Counted from the first letter of the stretch, positions 9,112-63,027 are shown. The stretch: 64,000 bases of DNA from Methanomassiliicoccales archaeon (GCA_026394375.1 JAPKYJ010000024.1:101577-165576); one strand, 5' to 3'. Numbers and translations: made by a program. Notes: generated from the sequence alone by a model not told the origin.

Positions 9112-9855
9112 TCACATCCTCCACGCGACCAAGAGGGAGCTCACGAACACGCCCACCAAGGTGATGCCCATGAGCAGTGCCGCCAGTCCGAAGGATACGG
9201 TGGTAAGCAGGGTCTCCGCGAAGAAAGCTCCGAAGCCCACGACCGCCACGGCCGTGTAGGGGGCGGAACCCCTTCCAGGATAGGAGGCGGCGAACACCTC
9301 GCCCGATGAGCCGTCCAAGACCACTTCGTATCTCTTGCCATTGAAGACGTAGTCAAGCTTCCAGATGGGGAAGTACACCAGTGCCTGCTCTCTCGGCTTG
9401 CCCGGCAAGGACTCGAGATAGGACACCATTTCGATATCTGGCTTGATGAGTTCCACTCCTCCCAAGTCGTATTTGGAGTCGAAGATCTTCATGTCTCCGC
9501 CCACGACCTTCAGGTTGTGCAATCCAGGCAGGGTGGTGGAACCAGCGGGCTCCACCTTGACCTCCTCCTTGCCGTCCACGTCTCGTTTGAAATAGTAGAC
9601 GGGGAAGTACTGGCGCTTTACTCCAGCCAGCTGCGCCAATCGGTCCAGGTTCTTGGCCTTGGTGCTGCCCGCCGCCCATCGTCTGAACACGCCCACGGCG
9701 TCGTTCTCCTGCACCATGAACGGGATGATGTAGTAGAACCCGGCACCTGAGCGATCGATGTAGATCTGGCTCGAGCAGTATGAGCACTTGACGAACTTGC
9801 TCCCCGCTTCGAACTCCACCTTGGCATTGCACTTCGGGCATTGGACTGAGGCCAT
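9112..9855 (-). CDS. N-terminal zinc-ribbon membrane protein (paralogue 1)
   Basis: 247 aa. CPKCNAKVEFEAGSKFVKCSYC ribbon, YFPVYYF and VYFPIWKLDYVFNGKRYEVVLDGSSGEVF motifs, and two C-terminal TM helices. Confidence 0.7.
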   Translation of the reverse strand: MASVQCPKCNAKVEFEAGSKFVKCSYCSSQIYIDRSGAGFYYIIPFMVQENDAVGVFRRWAAGSTKAKNLDRLAQLAGVKRQYFPVYYFKRDVDGKEEVKVEPAGSTTLPGLHNLKVVGGDMKIFDSKYDLGGVELIKPDIEMVSYLESLPGKPREQALVYFPIWKLDYVFNGKRYEVVLDGSSGEVFAASYPGRGSAPYTAVAVVGFGAFFAETLLTTVSFGLAALLMGITLVGVFVSSLLVAWRM

Positions 9856-27000: not shown

Positions 27001-28237
27001 GAAGCTGGACGTGGAGGAGTTCGTGCGAGCAGAGGTCAACGCACCGGTCCGCCTGGTGGAGTACTTCCGGGTGTGGAAAGAGCACATCATGAACGAAACG
27101 CGCTGCCGGCAGCTGGAGTTCACCGAGTCCCCACATGGAGATCACACCGCGGAATGGGATGTGGAAGGTGAGCATCTGCAAGTCTCGCTGGTCTCGCTCC
27201 ATTTCAAGGAAGCCATGGGCCAGCTTATGACCATCTCGGGTCTATCGCAGAGCTCGGCCATCACCCTCATCGAAGCGGGGCACCGGATCCTCAACGACGT
27301 CAAGCCCTTGACCGAAGACCAGCTGGTGGCCAGCGGGCTTCCCAGGACCGAGGCCAAGAAAGTGGTTCACTTCCTTAGCCGAGCAGGGGTCGAGGAGATC
27401 AGCCCCGCACCCGCTCAGGCCGCGGCCACGGTCATAATTGCCATGCCTAAGGAGAAGCTGATGCCTTACCTCCTGCGGGTCCCGCGCATGAATGAGGTCA
27501 AGGCTGAGATGCTCTATGAGGCGGGATTCAACGCCCTGGACAAGATCAAGGCCGCGAGCAAGGAATCGCTCCGCACCGTCAAAGGCATGGGCGGCAAGAC
27601 CGTGGACGAACTGGTCCAGTATGCCGCTCGCGGCGGTTTCGAGGCCGTGGTGAAATGCAATTCCTGCGGAGCCGACGTCGGGCCCAATGCGGTCACCTGC
27701 TCGAACTGCGGAACCAAGGTGCCTTCCGAGCATCTGGTGGAGGGGGAGGAAGAGGTCGAGGCTGCCCCGCCGGTTGGCCCGGAGATCGAGCTGGAACGCT
27801 CATTCACCTACCTCATAAAGGAGGAGAAGTCGGAGCGCTCCTACCACATGTTCGAGAAGGCCATGACCATGGGGATGAGGGGGTTCTGCGTCACCCGCAA
27901 CTACCCGCTCAAGATAAAGGCCAAGTACAACTTGGGCGAGACACCCATACTATGGCTCTCCAACGTGGGCAAGGAGAGCAGCATCCGGCCCAAGGACCTG
28001 GAGAAGCTGAGCGTCTCACTGGAGCAGTTCCTGGGGACGGAGGGCGGAGTCATCCTCCTGGACGGCCTGGAGTATCTGATCACCAATAACAACTTCCTCA
28101 CCGTGCTCCGGCTGGTGCAGTCGCTCAGGGATCAGGTGGCGATCAACCATTCCATACTCATGCTGGCCCTGAACCCTTCGACGCTGGACGCGCACGAGCT
28201 CAATCTGTTGGAGAAGGAAGTGGACGCCACCATTTGA
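24044..28237 (+). CDS. ileS: isoleucyl-tRNA synthetase with a ~330-aa C-terminal extension (HhH motifs, zinc ribbon, DUF835-like domain)
   Basis: 1397 aa. Class I signatures PPYTTGSIHLGT and KMSKSRGN, plus an editing domain. A canonical archaeal-length core (~1060 aa) is followed without a stop by HhH-like repeats, CNSCGADVGPNAVTCSNCG, and a DUF835-like tail (GFCVTRNYP...ILWLSN...ILLDGLEYLITNNNF...LALNP). Confidence 0.95.
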   Translation: MIKQVQANYDPAELEKRVREYWKQSNAYRKTKELRSSGTDFYFVDGPPYTTGSIHLGTSFNKTLKDTFIRYKRMQRFNVRDQPGYDMHGLPIEVKVEQSIGVKNKKEIEEYGIDRFVSTCKNFAVDFQKKMTEQFKELGIWMDWDNPYLTITSNYIEAAWWTLKRAYDKGLLIPANRVLSWCPRCETALAEAEIEYRDEKDPSIYVRFPLKDDEGVSLLIWTTTPWTLPANMAVAVHPDLTYAKVKYFKKEGGETVILLESLVEQVGQLAGYEGYEVLEGIEGDDLIGLEYVPPFLNDVQFQRETTGKWVHRIIPSTTVAAENTGLVHIAPGHGPEDFELGKEFNLEPFCPVDESGKFSKDMPPKYAGMNVKEANKHIMEELNERGLMYSVGTIVHRYGHCWRCDSGVIFRNTAQWFLKITQIKNLMLEEIDKVRWTPDWAGSSREYDWTVNARDWCISRQRYWGIPLPIWTCSCGEMKVIGSTIDLEKGDGYRKDMELHRPWIDAVTFKCTHCGKTMKRVPDVLDVWFDSGVASWAQLGFPKSRTEFDKWWPCKWITEAHDQTRGWFYSQLAAGCIAFDRAPYEGVLMHGWVLDPNGQPMSKSRGNVIEPEKVIKDYGADALRFYLMRTNAPWEDTCFQWDGVKNARKTLNILWNVVNFATTYMSIDSYDPSKMSVDALRGNLRPEDRWMISRTEGMKNEVTKYLNSYELHKACRALEDFVLEDLSRWYVRLIRDRMWKETGDLDKLAAYRVLFDAISALNRALAPFCPHITEEIFQHMEGNKETVHMLDWPVSDQTNRDERLEQNVATVQELVEIVTKERQSRNIKLRWPMKRIVVRAANNDALEAMKSLESVLLSQANVKKVEYIPPGQEWNEIILSAVPNPNAIGKVYRQWSSKIAVLLKSRPAKQIRECIDKGSYSLGIEGQMIKIEPNMVTFTSSLPEKVVGVKFSSGDLYMDFEITPEIEAEGFTRELTRRIQQMRKDMKLDVEEFVRAEVNAPVRLVEYFRVWKEHIMNETRCRQLEFTESPHGDHTAEWDVEGEHLQVSLVSLHFKEAMGQLMTISGLSQSSAITLIEAGHRILNDVKPLTEDQLVASGLPRTEAKKVVHFLSRAGVEEISPAPAQAAATVIIAMPKEKLMPYLLRVPRMNEVKAEMLYEAGFNALDKIKAASKESLRTVKGMGGKTVDELVQYAARGGFEAVVKCNSCGADVGPNAVTCSNCGTKVPSEHLVEGEEEVEAAPPVGPEIELERSFTYLIKEEKSERSYHMFEKAMTMGMRGFCVTRNYPLKIKAKYNLGETPILWLSNVGKESSIRPKDLEKLSVSLEQFLGTEGGVILLDGLEYLITNNNFLTVLRLVQSLRDQVAINHSILMLALNPSTLDAHELNLLEKEVDATI

Positions 28238-35939: not shown

Positions 35940-37241
35940 GTGGTCAATGATATCGAATTCCTCTACCACCTGATCATCGCGGCGGGGGTAGGGGCTCTGG
36001 TGGGCGTGGAGAGGGAGCACCACAAGGGCGATGACGTCATCATCGCTGGCATCCGCACTTTCCCCCTGGTCTCGCTATTGGGCTTCATGCTCGCTTTCCT
36101 AGGCAGGAACGGCAACGCCTTGGGAGTGGACGGAGGAGGGTCGTTGAACCTGGCCGTGCTCATCGGGCTGCCCATCGTGGGAGCCTTGGCCGTGGGCCTG
36201 CTCTACATCCGCTTTCAGATAGGCGCACCTGGTCTGACCACCCCCTTCGCTCTGGTGCTCACCTACATCAGCGGCGTCCTGGTCGGCTACGGCCTGATCA
36301 TGGAAGCGGTCGTGCTCTCCGTCACCATCACCTTCCTTTTAGTCTCCAAGCGCAGGCTGCATAAGTTCGCCCAAGTCCTGGACGATGAGGAGCTCATCTC
36401 CGCCCTGCAGTTCATCACGGTGGCGTTCATCGTCTACCCGCTGACGCTGCAAATCGCCCTTCCCGCCCCTTACGATGTGTTCAACCGGGGAATGGCGCTG
36501 GACATCAGTTCCCTCTTTCTGATAGTCATCTTCGTCTCCTCGATCTCCTTCGTATCCTTCCTCCTCATCCGCTGGAAGGGAGCTTCGTTGGGCATGAAGT
36601 ACTCCGGCCTTCTCGGAGGACTGGTCAGCTCGGAGGCGGCGACCATTTCCCTCTCCAATCTGGCGAAGCAGAAGAACGAGCTGGTCACGACCGCAGCGGC
36701 GGGCATCCTCATGGCCAACGCCACCATGTTCGTGCGGGACCTGGCAATCTGTGGCTTCGCCGATCCCAGTCTGGCCACGGCCACCATCCTCGCCCTGCCG
36801 TTGGTGCTTTTGTTCGGGGTGAACATGCTGCTCGGCCTGACCTTCAAGGTGCAGCAAAGCAAGGCGGAGCTGGAGGTCCGCTCGCCCTTCTCCATCGGTC
36901 CGGCGCTGAAATTCGGGGCGTTCTTCGTGGCCATATCAGCCATGGACGTTCTGATCCAGGACTTGTTCGGCAGCCAAGCGATCTACCTGATCGCCCTGGG
37001 CGGCCTGGTCTCATCGGCGGCGGTGGTGGCCTCGGTGTCCACTCTAGCTTTCGTCGGTACGATCGACCCGTGGACCGCAGCGGTCACGGCCATCCTGGCC
37101 ACGGCCATCTCCTCAATCAATAAGCTGGTCCTGTCCCGGGCCACCTGCCAGGATGTGTCCAAGGCGGTCCTGGGACGCATGACCCTGGTGGCAGCGCTGG
37201 CCATAGTGCTGACGGTAATGGTCCTGGTGCTCAGAATCTAG
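35940..37241 (+). CDS. MgtC/SapB-family plus DUF4010-like integral membrane protein
   Basis: 433 aa polytopic protein with an MgtC-like N-terminus (AAGVGALVGVEREHHK...AGIRTFPLVSLLG). Confidence 0.65.
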   Translation: MVNDIEFLYHLIIAAGVGALVGVEREHHKGDDVIIAGIRTFPLVSLLGFMLAFLGRNGNALGVDGGGSLNLAVLIGLPIVGALAVGLLYIRFQIGAPGLTTPFALVLTYISGVLVGYGLIMEAVVLSVTITFLLVSKRRLHKFAQVLDDEELISALQFITVAFIVYPLTLQIALPAPYDVFNRGMALDISSLFLIVIFVSSISFVSFLLIRWKGASLGMKYSGLLGGLVSSEAATISLSNLAKQKNELVTTAAAGILMANATMFVRDLAICGFADPSLATATILALPLVLLFGVNMLLGLTFKVQQSKAELEVRSPFSIGPALKFGAFFVAISAMDVLIQDLFGSQAIYLIALGGLVSSAAVVASVSTLAFVGTIDPWTAAVTAILATAISSINKLVLSRATCQDVSKAVLGRMTLVAALAIVLTVMVLVLRI

Positions 37242-37941
37242 CCTTCAGGACGACGATGCCTTCGCTCCGGGAGATGTCGATGGACTGCTTCCCCGTGAGG
37301 TGATTGGTGCCACGCATCTTGAGCACCTCCAAGTACTTCCGCCTGGCTCCGCCCTCTTCGGAGAGCATGAGCAGCACAATGCCGTCCACCGCGTAGGAGA
37401 CCTCCGGCGGATATATCTCCCCTGGGCCGACCTCGCCAGTGACCAGTGTGGTCGCGTTCCAATTCTTCAGACGATTGAAGAGATCGAAGAGGAACAGGCG
37501 GTAATCGCCCTTGAGCATGCCTCCTACCACCGTGATGGGGTCGATGACGATGCGCTGGGGCACCACCTCAGCGATCTTCTCCTCCATGGCCGCCAGGATC
37601 TGGCTAGCATCCAGCTCGCGCATCATGTTGCCCAGGTCCATGTACACTATCTGATCTCCGAAGAAATCCCTGTCCATGAAGTCGAACTGCGAGGCGTAGC
37701 GTAGCATCCACTGGGTCGGCTCGCTCAGGGTGGTGAAATACAGCCCTTGCTCGCCTCTCTTCGCCCCCTCGCACAGATATTTGAGTGCGAAGGTGGTCTT
37801 GCCCGTGCCCGCGGGGCCAGAGATGAGGACCACGGACGGGAACGGGAATCCTCCCTCGATCATCTCGTCCAGCCCCGGGATCCCCGTAGGGATGCGAACC
37901 AGGTCCATCCTCTTCGTACGCTCATCGCTTTTCTTGTCCAT
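37231..37941 (-). CDS. single-domain KaiC/RecA-superfamily ATPase
   Basis: 236 aa. IPTGIPGLDEMIEGGFPFPSVVLISGPAGTGKTTFALKYL (Walker A), Walker B-like RIVIDPI, and YLEVLKMRGTNH. Confidence 0.85.
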   Translation of the reverse strand: MDKKSDERTKRMDLVRIPTGIPGLDEMIEGGFPFPSVVLISGPAGTGKTTFALKYLCEGAKRGEQGLYFTTLSEPTQWMLRYASQFDFMDRDFFGDQIVYMDLGNMMRELDASQILAAMEEKIAEVVPQRIVIDPITVVGGMLKGDYRLFLFDLFNRLKNWNATTLVTGEVGPGEIYPPEVSYAVDGIVLLMLSEEGGARRKYLEVLKMRGTNHLTGKQSIDISRSEGIVVLKARF

Positions 37942-37943
37942 CT

Positions 37944-38615
37944 CTATCCCTTCTTACAATAGGTAATGTCCGTAATCGTCTTGACCCCCGAGTCTCCGGA
38001 TGCTCTTGCTTCGATGGTCTGCCGGAAGCTTATCTCGCTCGCGCATAGCGTCTTGGCCAATTCGTACAACGGGGCGCTTTTCTCTTTGTCAATGACCAAA
38101 AGTACCAATGCGTTCCGGGGACTCTCGAACACTTTAACGAAGTTGCGGAGGAAAAGCTCCACCGATTCGAAGCTGTTGTAGGTCAGGAGCGCCGAGAGAT
38201 TGTCGATGATGGCATATCGGCAGTCCTTGAGCCCGGTCTTCTTGCCGTCGTCGGAGGAGTTGTACTCGCTAATGGCGGCCGGTAGTTTATCGATATGGAA
38301 CGGACCGTCGACGAAGCCTACGTTGGCAGGAGCGATCTTGCAGTCGGCGGAGAAGCGGGAGATGGCGTCGATGTACATCAAGCGCTCAGCCTTGATGTGG
38401 TGCATCGAAAGGAGATGCACCATGTATTGATGCGGCCGGTCCACGGAAACGAACAGGCCGGTGAGACCCCTGTCCTGCGAAAGGCCTCGAAGGAGCATGA
38501 TGTTGAACCGCACGAACTGAGTGGATGGGACGTCGACCAAGATGGCGCCGCTCAGGCCGCTTGCGTCCAAGGCCCTCAGAAGCTCCTCCATCTGCATCAG
38601 GTCTTTCTCGTTCAT
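37944..38615 (-). CDS. KaiC-like paralogue lacking a Walker A motif (probably inactive partner)
   Basis: 223 aa. Similar length and layout (GLFVSVDRPHQYMV..., AIIDNLSALL, LVLLVIDKEK) but no GxxGxGKT. Two nt separate it from the downstream KaiC-like ATPase. Confidence 0.5.
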   Translation of the reverse strand: MNEKDLMQMEELLRALDASGLSGAILVDVPSTQFVRFNIMLLRGLSQDRGLTGLFVSVDRPHQYMVHLLSMHHIKAERLMYIDAISRFSADCKIAPANVGFVDGPFHIDKLPAAISEYNSSDDGKKTGLKDCRYAIIDNLSALLTYNSFESVELFLRNFVKVFESPRNALVLLVIDKEKSAPLYELAKTLCASEISFRQTIEARASGDSGVKTITDITYCKKG

Positions 38616-45702: not shown

Positions 45703-46692
45703 GTGATGTCAGAGCGGGGTGCTTCCATGGGAAAGAGATCAGGAATACATGTGAGATCCACAATTTTCGTGCTTATGCTGCTTTTGAGTGCGTTCTTCGT
45801 CGTTGCCACGGATACGGTGTCCGCAGCCGACAGCGACTATACCTATACAACGAGCGGCAGCCCCGCCGTTGCCACTATCACGGGATACACTGGCGCTGGC
45901 GGAGCGATCACGATCCCCTCCACATTAGGTGGGTATGCCACAGTGGCCATCGGAGACTCTGCGTTCTACTCCTGCACCTCCCTGACCTCCGTGACCATTC
46001 CCAACAGCGTCACGTCCATCGGGGACTGGGCGTTCTACAACTGCACCTCCCTGACCTCCGTGACCATTCCCAACAGCGTCACGTCCATCGGGGACGGTGC
46101 GTTCGCCGTCTGCACCTCCCTGACCTCCGTGACCATCCCCAGCAGCGTCACGTCCATCGGGTCTATGACGTTCAGTGTCTGCACCTCCCTGACCTCGATC
46201 GATGTGAATACAGGCAACGCGAACTATGCCAGCATCGATGGCGTGCTTCATAACAAAGCCATTACTACACTGATCCAGTACCCGGGCGGTAGGGTAGGGG
46301 CGTTCACCATCCGCAGCAGCGTCACGTCCATCGGGGGCTGGGCGTTCAACTCCTGCACCTCCCTGACCTCCGTGACCATCCCCCGCAGCGTCACGTCCAT
46401 CGGGGAATATGCGTTCTCCTCCTGCACCTCCCTGACATCAATTACATTCCTGGGGCTCGTTGCGCCGACCACCGTTGGTGCGAATTGGATCCTAGATACA
46501 CCCATGGGAATAAGAGGCCACGCATACCCCGCCTCGAATTTCCCTGCCCCGGGTGGCGATTTTCATGGGCTGACGATGGGTGCGGTCATCGGCAGCCCGG
46601 CGAGCGACAATACAATGCTGATATTAGTGGCAGTGATCGCGATCGCCGTGGTGGTGGCGGTGCTGCTCGTCCTACGCAAGCGCAAGAAGTAG
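45703..46692 (+). CDS. BspA-type leucine-rich-repeat cell-surface protein with signal peptide and C-terminal TM anchor
   Basis: 329 aa. N-terminal hydrophobic signal (IFVLMLLLSAFFVVA). About seven 23-aa repeats (CTSLTSVTIPNSVTSIGDWAFYN). C-terminal LILVAVIAIAVVVAVLLVLRKRKK. Confidence 0.8.
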   Translation: MMSERGASMGKRSGIHVRSTIFVLMLLLSAFFVVATDTVSAADSDYTYTTSGSPAVATITGYTGAGGAITIPSTLGGYATVAIGDSAFYSCTSLTSVTIPNSVTSIGDWAFYNCTSLTSVTIPNSVTSIGDGAFAVCTSLTSVTIPSSVTSIGSMTFSVCTSLTSIDVNTGNANYASIDGVLHNKAITTLIQYPGGRVGAFTIRSSVTSIGGWAFNSCTSLTSVTIPRSVTSIGEYAFSSCTSLTSITFLGLVAPTTVGANWILDTPMGIRGHAYPASNFPAPGGDFHGLTMGAVIGSPASDNTMLILVAVIAIAVVVAVLLVLRKRKK

Positions 46693-47450: not shown

Positions 47451-47760
47451 TCACCTTCATCCGGTCAGCTTGCTTGTCGATGAGCCGTAGGCGGTCACGG
47501 ATGCGTCGCCTCTGCTAGGCCGATTCGAACGATGTGTCGATCAACGCAGGCAGCGAGAACAATCCGTTCGTCCATGGAAGTTGAATGAGTTAGATAGATG
47601 CCTAGTCAAAATGGAATTCAATAATCATTTGTCACCGTTCATTGCTCGTTCTTAACAATCGTTTTCTTGGCGGGAAAACGAGCGATCGCCCGACAAAGGA
47701 GCGGGCAACCTAATTGAATCGACATGCCCTCGATTTCTCCTAGGAAAGGGGAGGATAAGG

Positions 47761-48246
47761 GTGAAGATTACCTCGGGCAGGCTTTACTTGTTCAAGGAGA
47801 GAGTGCCGCTGCGAACGCATCAGATCCTAAGAACGGAGCTCCACGGGGGACGGCCGACGCTGTACATCTCGAAGCATTCGCCCGCGCAATTGAGGACGCA
47901 GTTCGATTTCGATCCGAGCATCATGCATACCTTGTGGCTCAGCCCGAGACCGGAGCCGGATTGCATTCCGCCGATGAACCTGGGGATCTTCGAGAAGAGA
48001 GTGGACGAGTTCATAGCGGAAAGCCCGGACGGGATCATCGCGCTCAACGGCATCGATGTGCTGGAGATGTGGAACGGACTGCGCCCGGTCATCGACGTCC
48101 TGCGACGGGCTCAGAGCAAGGTCTCTTTGTATCAGACCAATCTGCTCATCTCCCTGGACCCCAAGATGTACCGAGAGAATACGCTCACAGAGCTGGAGAA
48201 TATCTCCGACGAGGTAGTCAGCTCAGTCTGCGAAGCCGACTCATAG
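47761..48246 (+). CDS. DUF835-like domain protein
   Basis: 161 aa. LYISKHSP...TLWLS...IIALNGIDVLEMWNG...LLISLDP aligns with the other DUF835-like copies in the window. Confidence 0.6.
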   Translation: MKITSGRLYLFKERVPLRTHQILRTELHGGRPTLYISKHSPAQLRTQFDFDPSIMHTLWLSPRPEPDCIPPMNLGIFEKRVDEFIAESPDGIIALNGIDVLEMWNGLRPVIDVLRRAQSKVSLYQTNLLISLDPKMYRENTLTELENISDEVVSSVCEADS

Positions 48247-48418
48247 GTAACAACTAGATTTGCGAAGGGTACCATGCGAAAGGCATGGACACCCGCCTTC
48301 AGTTCATTCTGGACAAGGTGATTGCGGAGCGCACCTCCGTCAGTCCTTCCTAACGCGATCGGGAGAATGTCGTCGGCGGACACGTGGAAGCGCCTTGAGT
48401 TGGGCGAAGGAAAACCAT

Positions 48419-49156
48419 ATGCCCAAGCAATCCCTAGCGAGACACGTGAAGCTCATCGGACTCAAGAAAGAGGGCAAGAGCGTGAGCGTGCAGTTCTACG
48501 GTTGTCAGCTTCGTTGCGGCTATTGCACCCACCTCAAGCAACCGAGGACGGAGCATGAGCTGCAGGAGGTGCTAGAGCTCATAGCCGATCCGAAGGTGGA
48601 AGACGTCTACATCGGCGGCGCGGAGCCCACGGTCCAGAAGAAAGAACTGCTGGAGCTGCTGCAACGCCTGCAACGTATGAACCGGCGGGTGACGTTGAAG
48701 ACCAACGGCCATGACCCCCAGTTCCTGCGCGATTCCCTCGGCCTGGTGGACATGTATATCTTGGAGATCAAGTGCCCCTTGGACGATCTAGACTGTATAG
48801 CCACGCTCACCGGGCTCTCTCGGGAGAGAGCTGAGAAGTACGCGTCATCATTGAAGCAGAGCCTGGAAGTGCTCCGAGGCGCCAAAGTGAGGATCTGGAT
48901 CCGGGTCATCCCAGGATACGTCACCCTGGACAAGGTAGGATGCCTGGGAGACCTGATCGCGGGAACGGCCACCGAGGTCTACCTCATCCAGTTCTTGAGC
49001 GCGCCTGAGAACGACGCCCCTTTCGACGGCATCGACACTCCTTCCCCGGCCGAAGGCGAGATGGTGGCCATGGCACGGAGATTGCTGGAGTTCGTTCCGA
49101 ACGTCTACGTGCGCGGCAGGGATTTCAAGAGCGACTTCCGAGCGGGAAGGCAGTAG
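48419..49156 (+). CDS. radical SAM protein (activating-enzyme-like)
   Basis: About 245 aa from the ATG at 48419. CQLRCGYC (CxxxCxxC) cluster and an IGGAEPT SAM-binding motif. The upstream part of the ORF-track ORF is not protein-like. Confidence 0.8.
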   Translation: MPKQSLARHVKLIGLKKEGKSVSVQFYGCQLRCGYCTHLKQPRTEHELQEVLELIADPKVEDVYIGGAEPTVQKKELLELLQRLQRMNRRVTLKTNGHDPQFLRDSLGLVDMYILEIKCPLDDLDCIATLTGLSRERAEKYASSLKQSLEVLRGAKVRIWIRVIPGYVTLDKVGCLGDLIAGTATEVYLIQFLSAPENDAPFDGIDTPSPAEGEMVAMARRLLEFVPNVYVRGRDFKSDFRAGRQ

Positions 49157-54442: not shown

Positions 54443-54970
54443 TTGATCGCTGAGACGCCCAGGAACGCGGATAGCCGTTACGCCACCGTAACCCTCAGTT
54501 CTGGAAAGATGGTCCTGGCCTTCGACTATGGACGCACCTATCTGGTGATGGGTGAACGAATCGACAAAGCCATGCGAATTGCGCAGGATTTCGTTTTCTC
54601 CGGCAGCAATGTGATGTGCATCTCGCGAATGCATCCGGACCTTATCGGCGAGCGCTGGGCTGGTAAGAAGGTGGATACCATTTGGCTCAGTGAAAGGCCC
54701 GGAGAACGCAACGTTCCTCCGGATCAGCTGCAGAGCTTGGTGCACCGAGTGCTCACGTTCGCCAACGGGAAAAAGCGCGCCATCATCATCATCGATGGGA
54801 TCGAGTACCTGGCGCTCTTCAACGACTTTCACCGGCTGCAGATGTTCTTCGAGCAGCTCAACGACATAGCGATGGAAAGCGGATCGATACTCCTGGTGGC
54901 GCTCGATCCTAGACTGTTTGACCAACGCTCAATGGCGCGGCTGCGACGCTTTGCTGAGGTTGTGAACTAG
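54443..54970 (+). CDS. DUF835-like domain protein
   Basis: 175 aa (TTG start). VMCISRMHPDLI...TIWLSE...IIIIDGIEYLALFNDF...LLVALDP. Confidence 0.6.
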   Translation: MIAETPRNADSRYATVTLSSGKMVLAFDYGRTYLVMGERIDKAMRIAQDFVFSGSNVMCISRMHPDLIGERWAGKKVDTIWLSERPGERNVPPDQLQSLVHRVLTFANGKKRAIIIIDGIEYLALFNDFHRLQMFFEQLNDIAMESGSILLVALDPRLFDQRSMARLRRFAEVVN

Positions 54971-55499
54971 GCAGCATCGCGCTGAGCTCCTCTGCCTTCA
55001 GGCGCGGGAAAACGGAGAACAACTGATCCAGGTCACGCTGCTCGAAGGTCAGGGGATCGATGCTCACCAGCATTTCGGCGTTTTGCTTGAGTAGGCTCGC
55101 TTCCATGTCCCTGAGGAATCCCATGACCTTGTTCAGATCGTTGTAGAGAAGAAGGTACTCCAGACCATCCAGGAAGACGGCCGTTTCCTTTCCTTCCTTG
55201 ATGGCTCCGCGCAGGGACTTGGAGACCTGGCTCAGGACCTTGGGCTGCATGACATCCTTGCCCTTGCAGCTGCTTAGCCAGAAGCAGCGTGCCTCTGGCA
55301 GGTCGTACTTCTGCATGACGTACTCTGGATGCATCCGGCTCACGCACACCCCTTCCACGCCGGTCTTCAGCAACCTGGAGTACAGCTGGAATCCCAGTCG
55401 AGGATAGCCTTCCACGAGCAAGGAGATCCTGCGGTCGTTCTTGTTAATCACGATTCTCATGCCTCCTTGAGGTTCGCGTCTCATTCGAGGGCTATCCAC
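54909..55499 (-). CDS. DUF835-like domain protein
   Basis: 196 aa. GVCVSRMHPEYV...CFWLSS...VFLDGLEYLLLYNDL...MLVSIDP. Its 3' end overlaps the convergent paralogue by 62 nt. Confidence 0.6.
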   Translation of the reverse strand: MDSPRMRREPQGGMRIVINKNDRRISLLVEGYPRLGFQLYSRLLKTGVEGVCVSRMHPEYVMQKYDLPEARCFWLSSCKGKDVMQPKVLSQVSKSLRGAIKEGKETAVFLDGLEYLLLYNDLNKVMGFLRDMEASLLKQNAEMLVSIDPLTFEQRDLDQLFSVFPRLKAEELSAMLPSSQPQQSVAAAPLSVGQTV

Positions 55500-55573
55500 C
55501 CTATATAAAGCTCATTTGAGCATGCTACTTTTCAAAGCAGAATCTTTTTTTCATCGGACAGCGAATCAGTGGC

Positions 55574-58279
55574 GTGAACAGGACCACGCGCAAGTCATTC
55601 CTCACCATCAAGGAGAAGGTCCTGCTCCACCTTCTCACCTTCCATCGCTTCTGCCAGGATGCCGATGCTCCCAAAGGGGTGACCCAAGAGGGCATAGCCA
55701 TCGGCGTGGGTGTGGGAAGGAACAACGTGACCAAGCTCGTCGTCGAGCTATCCGCGGCGGGAGCGGTGGAGATCCAGAACAAGCATGTCAAGGGGCTGTC
55801 CAGCACGCGCAAGGTCTACTTCCTTACCCATCGAGGGTTCGAAGAGGCCCTGACCCTGAAGAAGGAAGTGGAGGCGCTCGAGGTCCGGGTGGTGGACATG
55901 CAAGGTCAGGAGCACCGGGAGGAGTTCGGTCGGGTGGGCGTGTACCTGCCGAGGCGCTTTTCCTTGGTGGAGCTGGCCTTGGGAGTGGAGAGGGGTCGAT
56001 TCGACTGTGCCTCCTTCCACGAAGGCAAGGTCAAGGAGGAACGAAGGTTCGTCGATTTCACTGACCGGAAGCCAACGATCCGCGTGTTCTACGGTCGGGA
56101 AGAGGAGCTGGCCCGCCTCAACGAGCTCGTGGACTCGGAGGTCACTCGCCTGGTTGTAGTTCAAGGCATCGCGGGCATCGGCAAGACAACCCTATTGGCC
56201 AAGTTCGCGCAGGACCGACGGGAAAGGGTGAACACTTTCTGGTTCCGCATCCATGAGTGGATGAACCTCAAGGGGTTGTTGCGGCCTATCGCCGAGTTCC
56301 TCTCCCAGCTGGGTAAGAAAGGATTGGAGTGGTACCTGACCCAGACCGAAGCCCCCAATCTAGGCGAGATCAGTCATCTCCTGGAGACGGACCTAAGGGA
56401 TGTGACCGCGCTCATCATCCTGGATGATGTGCACAAGTCGGAGCGGGGGGTGTTGGATTTTCTGGGCGCCTTGATGGGCACGCTCGAGCACACCCCGAAC
56501 ATCAAGCTGATATGCACCAGCCGGGAATCGTTAGCCTTCTACCACCGTAGCGCGGTCATGAATGGAGTGGTGGTGGAGATCCATCTAGGTGGTTTGGACC
56601 GGGAAAGCAGCATGCGCCTGATGCGCGACCGTGCACTGCCCGAGGAAGCGCTTGAAGACATCTACCGCATCACCAAAGGCCACCCCTTCTTCATGGAACT
56701 GGTGGAGGACCCCAAGCTGGCTCTGGGCAAGAGCATCCGCATGTTCATCGAGCAAGAGGTGCAATCCAAGCTGGAGATCACGGAAAAACGCATCCTGGAG
56801 ATCGCCTCGGTCTTCCGTTATCCAGTGTCGACCGATTCCTTCTTCGTCATGGAAGAGGAGATCGCCAAGGAACAAGGCCAGGGTCACAAGGAACGTTCCT
56901 ACCAGGATTATATGGTGGACTACGACACCATCGAGGTCCTGATCCGAAAGGCATTGCTGAACGAGACCTCCGGGCGCATGGTAGGCATGCACGACGTCAT
57001 GCGCGAGTTCTTCTACTCCAGACTTTCGCCCAGACAGAGGAGGGTGTACCACAAGGCCGCTTCCAGGTACTACCAGGGAGACGAGACCGCCCCCTCTTAT
57101 GTCGAGGCCCTATACCACAGCATCATGGCAGGCGAACTCGATGTGGCGGCTCAGATAGCCGCGGCCAATGGCCGGGATATCCTCACCCGGGGTTATGCCA
57201 GCCTCCTGGCTCCATTGCTGGCGAGCATCTCGGAAAGGCAGGGGGGCGAAGTGAGGGACCACATCGAGATACTCCTCCTGCAAGCGGAGATATGGGACAT
57301 CCAGGGAGAATGGGAGAAGGCGCTCGATCGATACGTGGAGCTGCTGAGCACGGCCTCGCCCGAAAATGACCGCCGGCTGCTGGCGGAAGTGAACCGCCGA
57401 GTGGGAGTGGTGCACCTGCGCCGCTACGAGTACCAGGAAGCGGGCGTCTATCTGAAACGCAGCCAGGAAATCGCAGAAAGCATCCAGGACTCGCACACCC
57501 TTACCCAAGTGCATTATGACCTGGGGGGAGTGGCGGAACGGGAGGGGCGCTTCCAAGAGGCCGTAGAACATTTCACGCGGGCCGAGGAGCTGGCCAAGTC
57601 CATCGGCGACGATGTTGGCCACGGCAAGGCGATTCATGGCATCGGCAAGGCCTATAGTCAGCTCAGGGACCTGGAAACGGCGGTGCGCTACAAGCGGCAG
57701 GCGCTGGAGGTGCTGGAGCGGACCTCGGACCAGGACGAGATCGCCAAGGTCTGTGCTTCCCTGGGGAATGACCTCTGGAACCTCGGGTTCAGGGACGAAG
57801 GCATTCATCAGCTCGAACGGGCAGTGGAGCTGGCATGCTCGGTAGGTGACATTGTCGTTCAGGGCTATGCTCTATCCAACCTGGCAGGCTCGTACGTGGA
57901 GATCGGCAACGTGAAGAAGGCGGAGATCACGCTCGAACGGTCGGAGCAGATCGCCCAAAAACTGAACGAGCGCTTCTTGTTGGCCGCCTCGCACCTGTAT
58001 CGTGGCTATCTATATCATAAGAAGGGGGACTGGGAATGGGCCAAGGAGGAGTTCGCCACAAGCTTGCAGATAATGAGGGATGCCAATTCGCCCCTGAGGC
58101 TCTGTTACTGGATGTGCGAGATCGCAGTGACCTACCGTGAGAATTCGGATCTTGAAGGGGCTGACCAGCTGTTCGAAGAGGCCATGACGATTGCCAAAGG
58201 CACTGGCCAAGAAAGCCTTGTCAAACAAGTGGAAGAGATGAAGCAGTCCGTCAAAGGCTCAAAGAAAATGGAGAAGTAA
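55574..58279 (+). CDS. wHTH - STAND/AAA ATPase - TPR repeat protein
   Basis: 901 aa. N-terminal wHTH-like segment (GVTQEGIAIGVGVGRNNVTKLVVELSAAGAVE). FYGREEELARL...VVVQGIAGIGKTTLLAKF (Walker A) and LIILDDVHK (Walker B). The C-terminal ~350 aa are TPR-like repeats. Confidence 0.8.
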   Translation: MNRTTRKSFLTIKEKVLLHLLTFHRFCQDADAPKGVTQEGIAIGVGVGRNNVTKLVVELSAAGAVEIQNKHVKGLSSTRKVYFLTHRGFEEALTLKKEVEALEVRVVDMQGQEHREEFGRVGVYLPRRFSLVELALGVERGRFDCASFHEGKVKEERRFVDFTDRKPTIRVFYGREEELARLNELVDSEVTRLVVVQGIAGIGKTTLLAKFAQDRRERVNTFWFRIHEWMNLKGLLRPIAEFLSQLGKKGLEWYLTQTEAPNLGEISHLLETDLRDVTALIILDDVHKSERGVLDFLGALMGTLEHTPNIKLICTSRESLAFYHRSAVMNGVVVEIHLGGLDRESSMRLMRDRALPEEALEDIYRITKGHPFFMELVEDPKLALGKSIRMFIEQEVQSKLEITEKRILEIASVFRYPVSTDSFFVMEEEIAKEQGQGHKERSYQDYMVDYDTIEVLIRKALLNETSGRMVGMHDVMREFFYSRLSPRQRRVYHKAASRYYQGDETAPSYVEALYHSIMAGELDVAAQIAAANGRDILTRGYASLLAPLLASISERQGGEVRDHIEILLLQAEIWDIQGEWEKALDRYVELLSTASPENDRRLLAEVNRRVGVVHLRRYEYQEAGVYLKRSQEIAESIQDSHTLTQVHYDLGGVAEREGRFQEAVEHFTRAEELAKSIGDDVGHGKAIHGIGKAYSQLRDLETAVRYKRQALEVLERTSDQDEIAKVCASLGNDLWNLGFRDEGIHQLERAVELACSVGDIVVQGYALSNLAGSYVEIGNVKKAEITLERSEQIAQKLNERFLLAASHLYRGYLYHKKGDWEWAKEEFATSLQIMRDANSPLRLCYWMCEIAVTYRENSDLEGADQLFEEAMTIAKGTGQESLVKQVEEMKQSVKGSKKMEK

Positions 58280-58308
58280 GGAGTTTAGGAGGACTGAATT
58301 GCTAAGCT

Positions 58309-58464
58309 CTAATGGGGGTCCAACATCGGGATGGTGTGGGGGTCCAACATCGGAATCCCAAGAACAGCTGCATTCGCATCGACGCAAGAGCATGCAATCG
58401 CAAGCCCAGCCGCGGCGGCGATGAACGATATCGCCGCAACCATCGTCACTACCTTCGGGTTCAT
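58309..58464 (-). CDS. small putative secreted/lipobox peptide with a duplicated C-terminal heptapeptide
   Basis: 51 aa from the internal Met: MNPKVVTMVAAISFIAAAAGLAIACSCVDANAAVLGIPMLDPHTIPMLDPH. Hydrophobic signal ending in a lipobox-like AIAC. Weak call. Confidence 0.3.
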   Translation of the reverse strand: MNPKVVTMVAAISFIAAAAGLAIACSCVDANAAVLGIPMLDPHTIPMLDPH

Positions 58465-58660
58465 TGAGTCACCTTGAGTTGTATTGGCAGTTTTGACCTG
58501 GAAAATATATAATAGGTGTTTGAGCATGCTACAGTTAATCTTTTATATTAGGATGCCGAAATTCGTCTGCTGGCTGTCCCAATATGGCGAATTCCGTGTC
58601 TTCACCTCGCGGTAGGAAGGGAAAGGCTCATCCGCGACCGCGCAATGCAGGAGCGAGAAG

Positions 58661-59356
58661 ATGCGGAACGTGCTCCGGCCGAAGGCCGTTGTTTTCGACC
58701 TTGACAACACCCTCGTGGAGAGCGCGGTCGATTTCCAAGAGATGCGCAGGAGGGTGGTCGCGGAGCTGGAGCGGTGCGGGGCCTCCAGGCACGCCGTGGA
58801 CACCGAGAAGACCGTACTGACGAACATCCGAGAAGGACGCAACTACCTCTCTAGACTGCGGGACGAAAGTTACCTCTTAGATCTGGATGTGCGTCTGGGA
58901 GGCATCCTCACGGACTGCGAGCTGAGCACCTTGCCTATGGTCAAAGCCGTGGAAGGTGCCCATGATGCCCTGGCGATGCTTGGATCCCAGGGTCTTGCCT
59001 TGGGCGTTCTCACCCGCGGATCGAGACCCTATGCCTCTGCCGCCCTGCGGAAGGTGGGACTCGACGAGGTGCTGCATCACATGGTCTGCCGCGACGACCA
59101 CCCCCTGGAAGAAGCGAAGCCCAACCCTTTGGCGATGCAGCGTATCGCATCCAAGCTTGGGGTTCATGCCCGGGAGTGCCTCTACGTGGGCGATCACCTC
59201 ATCGACCTGGAATGCGCCCGTGCCTCCGGATCCGCGTTCGTAGGGGTTCTGACCGGGGTGATGACCGTCGAGGAGTGGCGGAAGCACACCTGCCCGCAGG
59301 TGGTGAGGAGCGTGGCCGATATCCCTAGTACAATAGCGCTCCGCGGTGCCAGATAG
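58661..59356 (+). CDS. HAD-superfamily phosphatase
   Basis: 231 aa. AVVFDLDNTLV (motif I), VLTRGS (motif II), VGDHLIDLECARASG (motif IV). Confidence 0.8.
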   Translation: MRNVLRPKAVVFDLDNTLVESAVDFQEMRRRVVAELERCGASRHAVDTEKTVLTNIREGRNYLSRLRDESYLLDLDVRLGGILTDCELSTLPMVKAVEGAHDALAMLGSQGLALGVLTRGSRPYASAALRKVGLDEVLHHMVCRDDHPLEEAKPNPLAMQRIASKLGVHARECLYVGDHLIDLECARASGSAFVGVLTGVMTVEEWRKHTCPQVVRSVADIPSTIALRGAR

Positions 59357-59399: not shown

Positions 59400-59786
59400 A
59401 TGCACAAGATCATCTTCACCGAGCACGCGCCGCGACCTGTCGGACCCTATTCGCAAGCAGTGGTCATGGGGAACATGCTTTTCTGCTCCGGTCAGATCGG
59501 CCTCGATCCTGCCACTGGAAAGCTCGTCCCCGGGAACGTGGCCGAGGAGACGGATCAATGCCTGCGCAATCTGTCCAAGGTACTGGAGGCTGGCGGAAGT
59601 GCGCTGAGCAAGGTCATCAAGACCACCGTCTTCGTGACGGACCTGGCTCATTTCAAGGAAGTGAACGAAGCATATGCATCGTTCTTTCCCGAGTCACCAC
59701 CTGCAAGGAGCGCCGTGCAAGTGAGCGCCCTGCCGCTAAGCGCGCGGGTGGAGATCGAGGCCATCGCCTTCTTGAGCGGTGACTAG
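59400..59786 (+). CDS. ridA: RidA/YjgF-family reactive intermediate deaminase
   Basis: 128 aa. APRPVGPYSQAV, KTTVFVTDL, PARSAVQVSALP, VEIEAIA. Confidence 0.9.
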   Translation: MHKIIFTEHAPRPVGPYSQAVVMGNMLFCSGQIGLDPATGKLVPGNVAEETDQCLRNLSKVLEAGGSALSKVIKTTVFVTDLAHFKEVNEAYASFFPESPPARSAVQVSALPLSARVEIEAIAFLSGD

Positions 59787-60382
59787 GCCAGGCTCTTCAG
59801 CTTCTCGTACTTCTCCTGGAAGGCCTTCTGACAGGTCTGGCAGCAAAGGTAGTAGTCCTTCCCGTCCAACTTCATCTTCACCGCTTCGTCGCGAATCTCC
59901 TTCTTGCAGTAGATGCATTGGAGGACCACCGTCAGCCCAGGGGTCACCAACGCCCTTTGGTCCTCCCGCATCACCCCGATGATGCTGGCGACGTCGTACT
60001 CGATGATCTCCGGCTGCTCGGACAGACGGCTGACGAAGTCGTTGACCATATGCGACTCGGTGAAGCTGCACAAGAGCAGCACTCTGCTGTTGCTGGTGAG
60101 ATATACTTGTCGAACATGCTCGCTCTGCTTCAATCTCTCCCCCAATGGACGAAGCTCCGATGGCTTGGCCTTGATGGTGATGATGACGCAAATCTCTCCC
60201 AACTTCTCCGGGTCTAATAGGGCAGTGTAACCGCGTATGACGCCAGTGTTCTCCATGTTGGCGATCTTGCTGCTGACCGTGGGGACGCTGACCCCGACCC
60301 GCTCGGCGATCTGCCTGAAGGAGAGGCGCCCGTTCTCCTGGAGCACTTTCAGAATGCTCACATCCGTCCCGTCCAGGTTCAT
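59783..60382 (-). CDS. Lrp/AsnC-family regulator with a C-terminal TRASH metal-binding domain (CopR-like)
   Basis: 199 aa. HTH LDGTDVSILKVLQENGRLSFRQIAERVGVSVPTV and C-terminal CIYCKKEI...YYLCCQTCQKAF. Divergent from copA. Confidence 0.85.
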   Translation of the reverse strand: MNLDGTDVSILKVLQENGRLSFRQIAERVGVSVPTVSSKIANMENTGVIRGYTALLDPEKLGEICVIITIKAKPSELRPLGERLKQSEHVRQVYLTSNSRVLLLCSFTESHMVNDFVSRLSEQPEIIEYDVASIIGVMREDQRALVTPGLTVVLQCIYCKKEIRDEAVKMKLDGKDYYLCCQTCQKAFQEKYEKLKSLA

Positions 60383-60513: not shown

Positions 60514-63027
60514 ATGGCAGAAGAGAAGGACGAGCACGAAAAAGCGGCGGAACGCCAGCATGCTGAGAAGCGCACCGCTTCCTTTGGCTTGACAGGCATG
60601 ACCTGCGCCACCTGCGCGGAGACGATCCAACGGAGCCTGGTCGATCTTTCCGGCGTGGATGATGCTCAGGTCAACTTTGCCACCGAGCGCGCCACCGTCT
60701 CCTACGATCCTAAGAAGGTGAACGTCGAACGGTTGAAGGCAGCGGTCAGGGACGCAGGATATGACCTGGTCATCAACGACGCCACCATCTTGGTGGGGGG
60801 GATGACCTGCGCCACCTGCGTGGAGACCATCGAATTGGCGCTGCTGGAGTTGGACGGAGTGCAGGCAGCCGTAGCGAACCTGACCACGGAGAAAGTGAAG
60901 GTGGTCTACGACCCCTCGCGCATCCGCATGGCGGACATCAAGCGCAAGATCCGTGAGGTCGGATACGAAGTCATCGAGGCCGAGACCCGGGACGCGGAGA
61001 AGGAAGCGAGGGAAAGGGAGATGCGCCGACAGAAACGGCTGCTCTACTTCTCCCTGGTCTTCTCAATTCCCACGCTGGCGCTCGCCCTGGCCATGATGTT
61101 CACCGACCTGGGCAAGGTCGAGTTCTTCATGCTGTACGGCAACCTGGTGCTTTTCTTCCTGGCCACTCCCGTGCAGTTCGTGGCCGGCTACCATTTCTAC
61201 ATCAACGCCTACAAGGCGCTGCGCAACCGCTCTGCCACCATGGACACGCTCATAGCCGTTGGCACTTCCGCTGCCTATCTATACAGCGTGGCGGTGGTCT
61301 TCTTCCCCGATGCGGTGGCGTTCAAGGATACCTACTTCGACTCCTCGGCCATGATCATCACCCTCATCCTCTTCGGCAAGTATCTGGAGGCGAAGGCCAA
61401 AGGCAGTACTTCCGAGGCTATCCGCAAGCTAGTGGACCTGCAGGCCAAGACCGCTCGGGTGGTCAGGGAAGGCATCGAGGTGGAGGTGCCTGTGGACGAC
61501 GTCGACGTGGGCGAGGTATTCGTCGTTCGGCCGGGGGAGAAGGTGCCGACCGATGGCGAGGTGATTGAGGGCTTTTCGGCGGTCGACGAGTCCATGCTCA
61601 CCGGCGAGAGCATCCCGGTGGAGAAGCGCACGAATTCGGAGGTCATCGGCGGTTCGATAAACAAGAACGGCTTGCTGCGGGTTCGTGCCACCAGGGTGGG
61701 GAAGGACACCGCCTTAGCGCAGATCGTCCGCCTGGTGGAAGATGCCCAAGGCTCCAAGGCACCAGTACAACGACTCGCAGACCGAGTGGCAGGCGTGTTC
61801 GTGCCCACGGTCATCAGCATTGCCGTTCTGACCTTCCTCCTTTGGTACTTCCTTGCCTACGGACAATTCGCGGACATGCCCGCCCCGAGGTTCGTCTTCT
61901 CGCTCACGGCCTTCATATCCGTGCTGGTGATCGCCTGCCCGTGCGCCCTTGGCCTGGCGACCCCGACGGCCATCATGGTCGGCACGGGACGAGGGGCGGA
62001 GAACGGCATCCTGATCAAGGGCGGAGAGGCCCTGGAGATCGCTGGCAATGTCCAGGTAATGGCGTTCGACAAGACCGGCACTCTGACCAAAGGTGAGCCA
62101 GAGGTGACGGATGTCGTGCCCATCGCCGCCGATGAGAAGGAGATCATCGCACTGGCTGCCGTGGCCGAGAAGGGCTCCGAACATCCCCTCGGTCAGGCCA
62201 TATTGAGGCGGGCACAGTCGCTGGGCATCAAGATCGCAGATTCCGAGGCTTTCGAGAACCTGCCTGGTCGCGGCGTCAGGGTGGAAAGCGCCGGACGCGT
62301 TCTGCTGCTGGGCAACCGCAAGCTCATGGCGGAGTACAAGGTGCCTCTGGAATCGGCCGAGGGCAAGGTGTTCGCTGTGGAAGAGCAAGGTAGGACGGCC
62401 ATGATCCTGGCGGCCGATTCGAAGGTGCTGGGGATCATCGCGGTGGCGGATGTCGCCAAGGAGAGCGCCCCTGAGGCCATCCAAGCCCTCAAAGATATGG
62501 GCATTGAGGTGGTGATGATCACCGGCGACAACCGTCGCACCGCCAACGTCATAGCCAAGCAGCTGGGCATCGAGCGCGTGCTGGCCGAAGTCCTCCCCGA
62601 GGACAAGGCCAAGGAAGTGGAGAAGCTGCAGAAGGAGGGCAAGGTGGTCGCCATGGTCGGAGATGGCGTGAACGACGCACCCGCCCTGGCGAAGGCGGAC
62701 GTGGGCATCGCCATCGGTTCTGGGACGGACGTTGCGATAGAGACCGGCAGCATAGTGCTCATCCGCAACGACCTGAAGGACGTGGTGGCAGCGATCCAGC
62801 TCTCCAAGAGGACCATGCGGAAGATCCGGCAGAATCTTTTCTGGGCATTCGGCTACAACACGGCCGGCATTCCTCTGGCCGCTGGGCTGCTGTTCCCGTT
62901 CTTCCACGTGCTGCTCCCGCCCATCGTGGCCGCGGGGGCAATGGCTCTCAGCTCCGTGTCGGTGGTTTCCAACGCGGCGCTGCTGAAGAGATACACTCCT
63001 GAGATCAAGAGAAAGGAGAAGAGGTGA
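60514..63027 (+). CDS. copA: copper-translocating P1B-type ATPase with two N-terminal HMA domains
   Basis: 837 aa. Two GMTCATC motifs, CPC in a TM helix, DKTGTLT, GDGVNDAP. Confidence 0.95.
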   Translation: MAEEKDEHEKAAERQHAEKRTASFGLTGMTCATCAETIQRSLVDLSGVDDAQVNFATERATVSYDPKKVNVERLKAAVRDAGYDLVINDATILVGGMTCATCVETIELALLELDGVQAAVANLTTEKVKVVYDPSRIRMADIKRKIREVGYEVIEAETRDAEKEAREREMRRQKRLLYFSLVFSIPTLALALAMMFTDLGKVEFFMLYGNLVLFFLATPVQFVAGYHFYINAYKALRNRSATMDTLIAVGTSAAYLYSVAVVFFPDAVAFKDTYFDSSAMIITLILFGKYLEAKAKGSTSEAIRKLVDLQAKTARVVREGIEVEVPVDDVDVGEVFVVRPGEKVPTDGEVIEGFSAVDESMLTGESIPVEKRTNSEVIGGSINKNGLLRVRATRVGKDTALAQIVRLVEDAQGSKAPVQRLADRVAGVFVPTVISIAVLTFLLWYFLAYGQFADMPAPRFVFSLTAFISVLVIACPCALGLATPTAIMVGTGRGAENGILIKGGEALEIAGNVQVMAFDKTGTLTKGEPEVTDVVPIAADEKEIIALAAVAEKGSEHPLGQAILRRAQSLGIKIADSEAFENLPGRGVRVESAGRVLLLGNRKLMAEYKVPLESAEGKVFAVEEQGRTAMILAADSKVLGIIAVADVAKESAPEAIQALKDMGIEVVMITGDNRRTANVIAKQLGIERVLAEVLPEDKAKEVEKLQKEGKVVAMVGDGVNDAPALAKADVGIAIGSGTDVAIETGSIVLIRNDLKDVVAAIQLSKRTMRKIRQNLFWAFGYNTAGIPLAAGLLFPFFHVLLPPIVAAGAMALSSVSVVSNAALLKRYTPEIKRKEKR

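Follow-up and report, generated by a model that had tools for sequence, protein, structure and literature searches.

The closest solved relative of the STAND NTPase described here is PH0952 from Pyrococcus horikoshii (6mfv), which carries an N-terminal ArsR-like effector domain; STANDs of the PH0952/MalT type are kept inactive by inhibitory proteins (PMC6468293). Archaeal PH0952-type STANDs have no described inducer, DNA site or target. This study concerns a locus that offers candidates for all three within 4 kb. It lies in a 64-kb window (the whole stretch of DNA analysed, from a Methanomassiliicoccales archaeon) and comprises two DUF835 genes, D1 and D2, a gene for a 901-aa STAND transcription factor, a short repeat-peptide gene and a promoter element found on both sides of the STAND gene. 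Our results suggest, with confidence and doubt evenly balanced, that it is a regulatory cassette, conserved within the family Methanomassiliicoccaceae and specific to it, with the STAND transcription factor at its centre. The candidate operator, targets and ligand were conserved across about 50 species of this family, which includes the human-gut methanogen Methanomassiliicoccus luminyensis.

Other described systems resemble parts of the locus. MalT of Escherichia coli is likewise an activator with a TPR-like sensor; it undergoes ADP/ATP-switched multimerisation and is restrained by the inhibitors MalK, MalY and Aes. Unlike the present protein, it has a C-terminal LuxR-type helix-turn-helix (HTH) and senses maltotriose. 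In RRNPP systems of Firmicutes and phages (PlcR-PapR, Rgg-SHP, ComR-ComS, Rap-Phr, AimR-AimP), a cytoplasmic TPR receptor with a DNA-binding domain is encoded beside an exported pro-peptide gene. Among the output domains of archaeal response regulators, DUF835 has been listed under the name "iKaiC" (REC-DUF835; Galperin et al. 2018, PMC5847659). This published view of an inactivated KaiC was overlooked in the original prediction, an annotation generated by a model from the window sequence, which had stated that DUF835 has no assigned function.

The STAND protein and the DUF835 pair

Orthologous loci were obtained by scanning one genome per GTDB species, which gave 51 Methanomassiliicoccales loci (L codes below; positions without a code refer to the window). 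STAND orthologues were single-copy, displayed 47-64% identity and included that of M. luminyensis; these matches assign the window to the Methanomassiliicoccales. The window DNA itself was present in sequencing runs from freshwater sediment.

All three open reading frames (ORFs) of the original prediction, D1, D2 and the 901-aa protein, were found as described. The STAND protein (55574-58279, plus strand) was characterised by Pfam and NCBIfam profiles, its match to 6mfv and an AlphaFold2 (AF2) model with a predicted local distance difference test (pLDDT) score of 86.6. Its layout comprises a winged helix-turn-helix (wHTH) at aa 1-101, a small beta domain, a NOD at aa 172 to about 480, and an arm followed by a TPR sensor at aa ~486-900. 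The Walker A motif GIAGIGKT occupies aa 198-205 and Walker B reads ILDDVH; GIAGIGKT and the DD pair were invariant among orthologues. Pfam families AAA_16, ATPase_2 and NB-ARC matched aa 172-372 and TPR families about aa 557-890, which upheld the STAND NTPase and TPR assignments made earlier from these same motifs. The N-terminal winged helix of the original prediction was also borne out. A profile of aa 1-175 matched wHTH regulators exclusively (MepR/MarR, CRP, PadR), weakly and with E from 0.03; the AF2 topology over aa 12-101 is H-H-H-beta-beta-H (three helices and a hairpin at aa 12-84), and PH0952 carries its effector at the N-terminus too (PMC6468293). All parts expected of a STAND NTPase were present, namely a P-loop nucleotide-binding domain with Walker A and B motifs, helical and winged-helix subdomains and a repeat sensor.

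PH0952 displays the same parts in the same order (N-terminal wHTH, NOD, arm, TPR sensor) at about 20% identity, with E=2.5e-27 by sequence and, for 6mfv_A in Foldseek, E=1e-22 and a template modelling (TM) score of 0.71, the NOD and TPR parts being matched both ways; neither a DUF835 nor a peptide partner of PH0952 is described. Further Foldseek matches were MalT, LGN and Rap-pheromone complexes. The modelled TPR part superposes on the peptide-binding TPRs of LGN and of the Rap-pheromone complexes with a TM score of about 0.7 (0.70 for Rap). Judged by sequence and model, the 901-aa protein belongs to the PH0952/MalT type of STAND, with the layout wHTH-NOD-TPR. Equivalence to MalT itself was rejected (43 bits against an NCBIfam cut-off of 537, and no GerE domain), as was membership of the RRNPP family, since the wHTH and STAND NOD precede the TPRs in place of an XRE-HTH or phosphatase placed directly on them.

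D1 (54443-54970, plus strand, 175 aa) and D2 (54909-55460, minus strand, probably 183 aa) are stand-alone DUF835 proteins, matching PF05763 with E=8e-29 and E=2.6e-24, respectively. Their scores (100.6 and 86 bits) lie far above the gathering cut-off of 33.1, so that the earlier family assignment was sound; a third stand-alone copy of the window scored 54.7, and with an IleRS fusion a local profile search counted four DUF835 domains in the window. The pair is diverged and facing, as had been noted: identity was 24%, and the convergent genes overlap by 62 nt at their 3' coding ends (54909-54970, from ORF coordinates). The N-terminus of D1 was conserved relative to an orthologue beginning at ATG. 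The D2 ORF reaches a GTG at 55499 (196 aa), from which a 74-bp spacer to STAND had been derived. The divergent arrangement stands, but orthologue alignment and a near-identical 183-aa database protein (P0121) placed the D2 start at ATG 55460, so that the spacer measures 113 bp.

Among the orthologous loci, this antisense overlap of D1 and D2 measured exactly 101 nt in about half (e.g. L009 6292-6392) and was absent from some others. The coding sequence for the last helix of D1 lies opposite that for a semi-conserved D2 tail at the C-terminus (SQQ...GQTV).

The AF2 model of D2 (pLDDT 89.6) found its best Foldseek matches in FlaH (4yds), KaiC and the RecA-superfamily protein PH0284, and the D1 sequence weakly matched ArlH/FlaH. 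In an alignment of D2 orthologues and window paralogues, the Walker A position after beta-1 was replaced (EGYPR in D2, GERID in D1) and GK[ST] occurred nowhere; the motifs C(I/V)(S/T)RxHP, WLS, DG(L/I)EYL and DP were conserved. On this model and alignment, D1 and D2 are inactivated KaiC-like (iKaiC) domains, with a RecA/KaiC fold and no P-loop, and they are unlikely to be enzymes. An active KaiC/ArlH ATPase was rejected for the DUF835 proteins (no PF06745 match; 25 bits against the ArlH NCBIfam cut-off of 215). Comparison of the D2 profile with the KaiC of the window by hhalign was uninformative (probability 2.6%), and the fold search was used instead. REC-DUF835/iKaiC proteins, ArlH/FlaH and KaiC share with D1 and D2 the DUF835 family or the RecA/KaiC-like fold; in contrast, D1 and D2 form a stand-alone convergent pair with no receiver or sensor domain and, compared with ArlH and KaiC, lack Walker A.

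A full HMMER scan yielded 3469 DUF835 clusters at 50% identity. The partners of DUF835 in 99 multidomain representatives were 7TM sensor regions (21), DUF7504 (14), HHH_5 (11), receiver (REC) domains (8), IleRS/DUF5915 parts (7), PAS (5) and TPR (3, one of them a DUF835-TPR-DUF835 protein), and GAF was also found. Tandem DUF835 pairs were common in this set, including on 7TM receptors and other signalling proteins. Sensor and receiver partners together with these pairs point to a signalling module that tends to act in pairs, and a D1-D2 heterodimer is proposed because DUF835 so often comes as a tandem pair. By this analogy, D1 and D2 most likely form a heterodimeric adaptor or output module, or a feedback modulator of STAND.

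The order D1-D2-STAND was maintained in about 50 Methanomassiliicoccaceae species. The divergent D2(-)/STAND(+) pair occurred in every locus with enough upstream DNA except L044, and D1 was absent or fragmentary in L022, L024, L026, L044, L046 and L047.

A promoter element shared by D2 and a repeat-peptide gene

When the D2-STAND spacers were aligned, a composite element emerged, TATA-N7-TTGAGCATGCT(A/C)C, whose core is palindromic. The region between D2 and STAND holds its first copy (TTGAGCATGCTAC, core AGCATGCT, 55516-55528). At a distance of 7 nt is the TATA box of D2 (TATATAAA, reading TTTATATA on the minus strand; 55502-55509), which is itself 41 nt from the D2 ATG. On the STAND side, a T-rich TATA-like element (55541-55552, plus strand) with its centre ~27 nt upstream of the STAND GTG is the proposed STAND promoter. 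The second copy (TTGAGCATGCTAC, 58520-58532) lies just downstream of STAND, between the peptide gene and a HAD gene, in the orientation of copy 1 and with a TATA 7 nt away on each side. The TATA box of the peptide gene (58505-58512, minus strand) is again 41 nt from the ATG, a distance identical to that of D2. To the right of copy 2, a second TATA-like element, TTTTATATTA (58542-58551, plus strand), faces HAD and corresponds to a conserved TTTAAATA-like block in copy-2 sequences.

The exact operator 12-mer occurred twice in the window (55516 and 58520), flanking STAND. The exact 11-mer was found in 49 of 56 loci, 35 loci having exactly two copies 3.1-3.3 kb apart, and copy 1 was found in all orthologous loci at one mismatch at most. 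An alignment of 50 sequences (26 of copy 1 and 24 of copy 2) displayed invariant GAG..TGCT and TATA T's (T12/T14), near-invariant TATA A's and divergent flanks. Changes were concerted within genomes: L042 and L048 carried TGGAGC in both copies, and both cores were altered in L007 (GAGCTTGCT and GAGATTGCT, compared with the reference core GAGCATGCT). The recognition helix of the L007 STAND, in this one genome, has a unique Asn in an otherwise RNNV(S/T/A)K motif; this apparent co-change of helix and operator cores is only a hint.

A metagenome scan for TATWWAW-N7-TTGAGCATGCT returned at least 120 matches. Among the matches listed, about 25-30 were orthologous loci, and the non-orthologous ones sampled were chance occurrences in bacterial or eukaryotic DNA. 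One plausible extra site was recorded among the matches listed, in a 600-kb fermentation-metagenome contig (L106 2160-2186, minus strand): TATTAAA-N7-TTGAGCATGCTAC-N6-TGATAAATA. It lies between TruA-like and Fap7/adenylate-kinase-like genes, ~155 nt upstream of the latter, and an Rfam scan found no RNA gene in that interval. In L014 (10107-10114), an extra GAGCATGC core occurs ~11 nt upstream of a TATA-like box before the HAD start, an arrangement that is not conserved in the window.

The peptide gene (58309-58464, minus strand) is preceded by a GGTGA ribosome-binding site and encodes 51 aa, MNPKVVTMVAAISFIAAAAGLAIACSCVDANAAVLG-IPMLDPH-T-IPMLDPH, ending there at the stop codon. A hydrophobic helix resembling a signal peptide or anchor is followed by tandem xIPxxDPH units. 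The number of units in orthologous peptides ranges from 2 to about 16, and almost all of these peptides terminate at a unit boundary. The unit varies by lineage (IPGIDPH, IPFLDPH, IPVLDPH, IPGVDPH, IPMLDPH, IPGLEPH, IPGNSPH and others), and one clade displays MPLPGVGPH (LPGVGPH) units with no hydrophobic N-terminus. A back-translated pattern located such repeats in the orthologous loci solely beside STAND, on the opposite strand. The two alternating unit variants of L007 differ at 6 of 24 nt, and since all six differences are synonymous the ORF is under selection at the protein level. A metatranscriptome contig of L041 skips 48 nt, i.e. two units (9759-9808), and repeat number is therefore polymorphic within the population. 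The peptide matched no known family in Pfam or NCBIfam, although the ORF is present, unnamed, in NCBI nr; Tandem Repeats Finder reported nothing at 58200-58700 because the window gene has just two 24-nt units. These sequence features make the gene a candidate multi-copy secreted peptide precursor. The original prediction had noted neither the two operator copies nor this gene, which lies just beyond the coordinates it gave.

Precursors with an export signal and a variable number of identical units are known from the yeast alpha-factor MFalpha1 and from multi-core precursors of ribosomally synthesised and post-translationally modified peptides (RiPPs) such as dikaritins and cyanobactins. The peptide gene resembles them in design only, by its N-terminal signal, repeated units and end at a unit boundary, and differs by the absence of Kex2-type sites and of adjacent maturases. 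Maturation, modification, export and immunity genes were absent from the conserved block around it (HAD, RidA, Lrp/TRASH, CopA), although more distant partners are conceivable; a radical SAM gene lies 9 kb off, beside another DUF835 gene.

No RNA run was found to contain the window, and transcription was assessed from metatranscriptomes on two orthologous loci, L014 (four runs) and L041. Assembler contig depths, a crude measure in which repeat k-mers inflate the peptide value perhaps 2-3 fold, ranked the peptide gene of L014 as the most abundant transcript of the locus (1523, 1454, about 164 and 99), followed by D1-D2 (107, 110 and 50; in the fourth run, X37, 34 for D2 versus 5.8 for D1), STAND (13, 9, 2-10 and 0-5) and HAD (3-5). 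In its unique 5' portion, the peptide gene still reached a depth of 99 versus 2-5 for STAND, and D2 exceeded STAND RNA about 5-10 fold. The ranking was the same in L041. A single RNA contig of L014 covers both D1 and D2. In three of the four L014 runs, the operator region (6885-6999) was devoid of coverage. D2 contigs stop at 6881-6884, 6-9 nt upstream of the ATG, one of them with adapter read-through, and STAND contigs begin at 7000-7026, the start codon being at 7001. Since these contigs begin at or just after the start codon, STAND mRNA appears to be leaderless and to arise from the T-rich element ~27 nt upstream.

A proposed local STAND regulon and its alternatives

D2 and STAND are very probably functionally coupled: one divergent promoter region, carrying the invariant palindromic element, is common to both. 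The most economical reading, to which we give half of our confidence, is that the STAND factor controls a local regulon whose outputs are D2 and the peptide. Binding of an inducer by the TPR sensor would let STAND swap ADP for ATP and multimerise; the multimer would then occupy, via its wHTH, the element upstream of the D2 and peptide-gene TATA boxes and drive transcription. STAND may also modulate its own transcript, which is scarce and apparently leaderless. Such a regulon would have D2 and the peptide gene as strongly expressed targets and STAND as its weakly expressed regulator. The candidate operator sits immediately upstream of the transcription factor B recognition element (BRE) and TATA box of both leftward genes, D2 and the peptide gene, and a site directly upstream of BRE/TATA is the usual activator position in archaeal promoters. 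If so, D2 would be a well-expressed and specific candidate output of a defined regulator, in a family (DUF835/iKaiC, ~3,500 clusters at 50% identity) that has no experimentally defined role.

A further step, possible but on the whole improbable, would make the locus an archaeal circuit of peptide-based cell-cell signalling, analogous to RRNPP systems and with the peptide as TPR ligand. The highly expressed precursor would be exported, cut into identical xIPxxDPH octapeptides, re-imported and bound by the STAND TPRs; multimerisation of STAND on the TTGAGCATGCT operators would then yield more precursor (autoinduction) and the iKaiC protein D2 as intracellular output. Lineage-specific units (IPGIDPH, IPFLDPH, IPGVDPH, IPMLDPH, LPGVGPH) would act as "pherotypes". 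Like RRNPP systems, the locus displays a putative pro-peptide gene conserved beside the receptor gene (58309-58464 in the window), a palindromic box before it, a peptide that diversifies by lineage and TPRs superposing on Rap-pheromone complexes. Unlike them, it combines a STAND NTPase with a winged helix instead of an XRE-type HTH, has many tandem copies and belongs to an archaeon. Archaeal quorum sensing is poorly characterised (PMC12642392), and no peptide-based system in archaea was described in the literature found. The conserved gene for a putative secreted multi-copy peptide, extremely highly transcribed and placed beside a TPR receptor gene, is a concrete candidate for archaeal peptide signalling.

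Several observations weigh against the local regulon itself, apart from the crudeness of the contig depths. The contiguous palindrome of 8-10 bp is short for a wHTH dimer. The functional link between DUF835 and STAND that the original prediction had proposed very probably holds for D2, through the shared promoter with its invariant element, co-loss and divergent transcription; D1, lost together with D2 in one lineage, has a separate promoter that lacks the operator. HAD (58661-59356, plus strand; assigned by Pfam, conserved in position and low in RNA) is a weak possible member, at best loosely attached to the regulon, since a proximal TATA of its own probably serves it in L014.

Other such observations concern descent. 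The whole 15-kb block is syntenic across the family, in the order RNR, TrpB-like, asparaginase, D1, D2, STAND, HAD, RidA, Lrp/TRASH and CopA, and conservation extends equally to its housekeeping genes (TrpB-like, asparaginase, HAD, RidA, CopA). Gene order thus adds no independent evidence, and adjacency alone proves little. In the four contexts examined of STAND homologues at ~30% identity, from other Thermoplasmatota, there was neither a DUF835 neighbour nor a small repeat ORF or peptide neighbour; their neighbours were purine salvage genes, PKD surface proteins and alpha-2-macroglobulin. The recurrent DUF835-STAND linkage expected from the original prediction was thus found inside the family, in about 50 species, but in none of these contexts outside it, i.e. 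in one orthologous group only; the DUF835 neighbourhoods compared were those of the Methanomassiliicoccales orthologues, which were all that searches with D2 and a diverse DUF835 alignment returned. In L044 (4101-8900), operator copy 2 is missing along with D1, D2 and the peptide gene; asparaginase abuts STAND and STAND abuts HAD, and STAND is retained with copy 1 at one mismatch beside a decayed left TATA. The sole interruption of the STAND ORF in this locus is an assembly gap. Since STAND persists there without D1 and D2, these are not obligatory partners.

The RNR-to-CopA collinearity, the different neighbours of distant homologues, the survival of STAND in L044 and the possible third element before an unrelated kinase gene in L106 would all suit unrelated genes held together in a vertically inherited block, with the element as the site of another regulator or as a determinant of promoter strength. 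We consider this explanation unlikely. The element was restricted to the two STAND flanks, both in the 64-kb window and in orthologous loci totalling about 0.8 Mb, and its changes were concerted within genomes. Moreover, L044 lost copy 2 along with D1, D2 and the peptide gene, and D2 and the peptide gene are identical in promoter geometry.

It is just as doubtful that the secreted peptide plays no part in sensing, being for example an antimicrobial or RiPP-like precursor or a His/Asp-rich metal-binding or surface peptide that the cassette simply regulates, and that STAND senses a different small molecule. Its very high RNA is typical of structural or bacteriocin precursors, its repeats are rich in Asp, Pro and His with a copper ATPase and a TRASH regulator nearby, the MPLPGVGPH clade has no hydrophobic N-terminus, and MalT itself is a sugar sensor. 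Yet the conserved block is devoid of maturation, export and immunity genes, termination at a repeat boundary and 2-16 copies fit the release of identical short units, and the STAND sensor resembles peptide-binding TPRs.

Distinctly less probable is a feedback loop in which D2, alone or with D1, would bind the NOD or sensor of STAND and keep it resting, STAND-dependent expression of D2 making the loop negative. MalT offers a parallel, being restrained by the RecA-fold ATPase MalK and by MalY; inhibitory proteins hold STANDs of this type (PMC6468293), and a MalT-MalY structure was among the fold matches. D2 also has a RecA-like fold with no catalytic motifs and is transcribed divergently from the shared promoter at the excess over STAND RNA given above. 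However, most DUF835 domains occur on receptors and response regulators unrelated to STAND, and distant STAND homologues are devoid of DUF835 neighbours.

Finally, an antiviral (Avs-like) STAND defence system with DUF835 effectors deserves next to no credence and was rejected: STAND-TPR proteins are common in defence and weak PADLOC matches were obtained (STAND_TPR 1.8e-6 over 70 aa, Avs4 0.009), but the effector is a wHTH with no nuclease, protease, TIR or other killing domain, and a single-copy orthologue at 47-64% identity in a stable, family-wide housekeeping block is not part of a variable island.

Neighbouring genes and other DUF835 copies

The third stand-alone DUF835 gene (47761-48246, plus strand, Pfam E=1.2e-14) is followed after 14 nt by a radical SAM gene (48260-49156, plus strand). 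The DUF835 gene is masked in simple ORF lists by a longer ORF in another frame (47724-48257). The IleRS fusion (24044-28237, plus strand) combines isoleucyl-tRNA synthetase, HHH_5, a zinc ribbon and a C-terminal DUF835 domain (aa 1261-1392). The true KaiC-family ATPase of the window (37231-37941, minus strand, PF06745 E=1.3e-44) lies directly downstream of a gene (37944-38615, minus strand) for a 223-aa protein that matched no Pfam family; no link was found between this KaiC-like gene and the DUF835 genes.

The HAD gene is followed by RidA (59400-59786) and by a gene encoding a wHTH regulator of the Lrp/AsnC type, with a TRASH metal-binding domain at its C-terminus (59783-60382, minus strand). 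The latter is divergent from a CopA-type copper ATPase gene (60514-63027, plus strand) encoding two HMA domains. The pair is conserved in the syntenic block and resembles a common copper-resistance arrangement. At 45703-46692 (plus strand), a BspA-type leucine-rich-repeat (LRR_5) protein is encoded, which is unusual amid the housekeeping genes.

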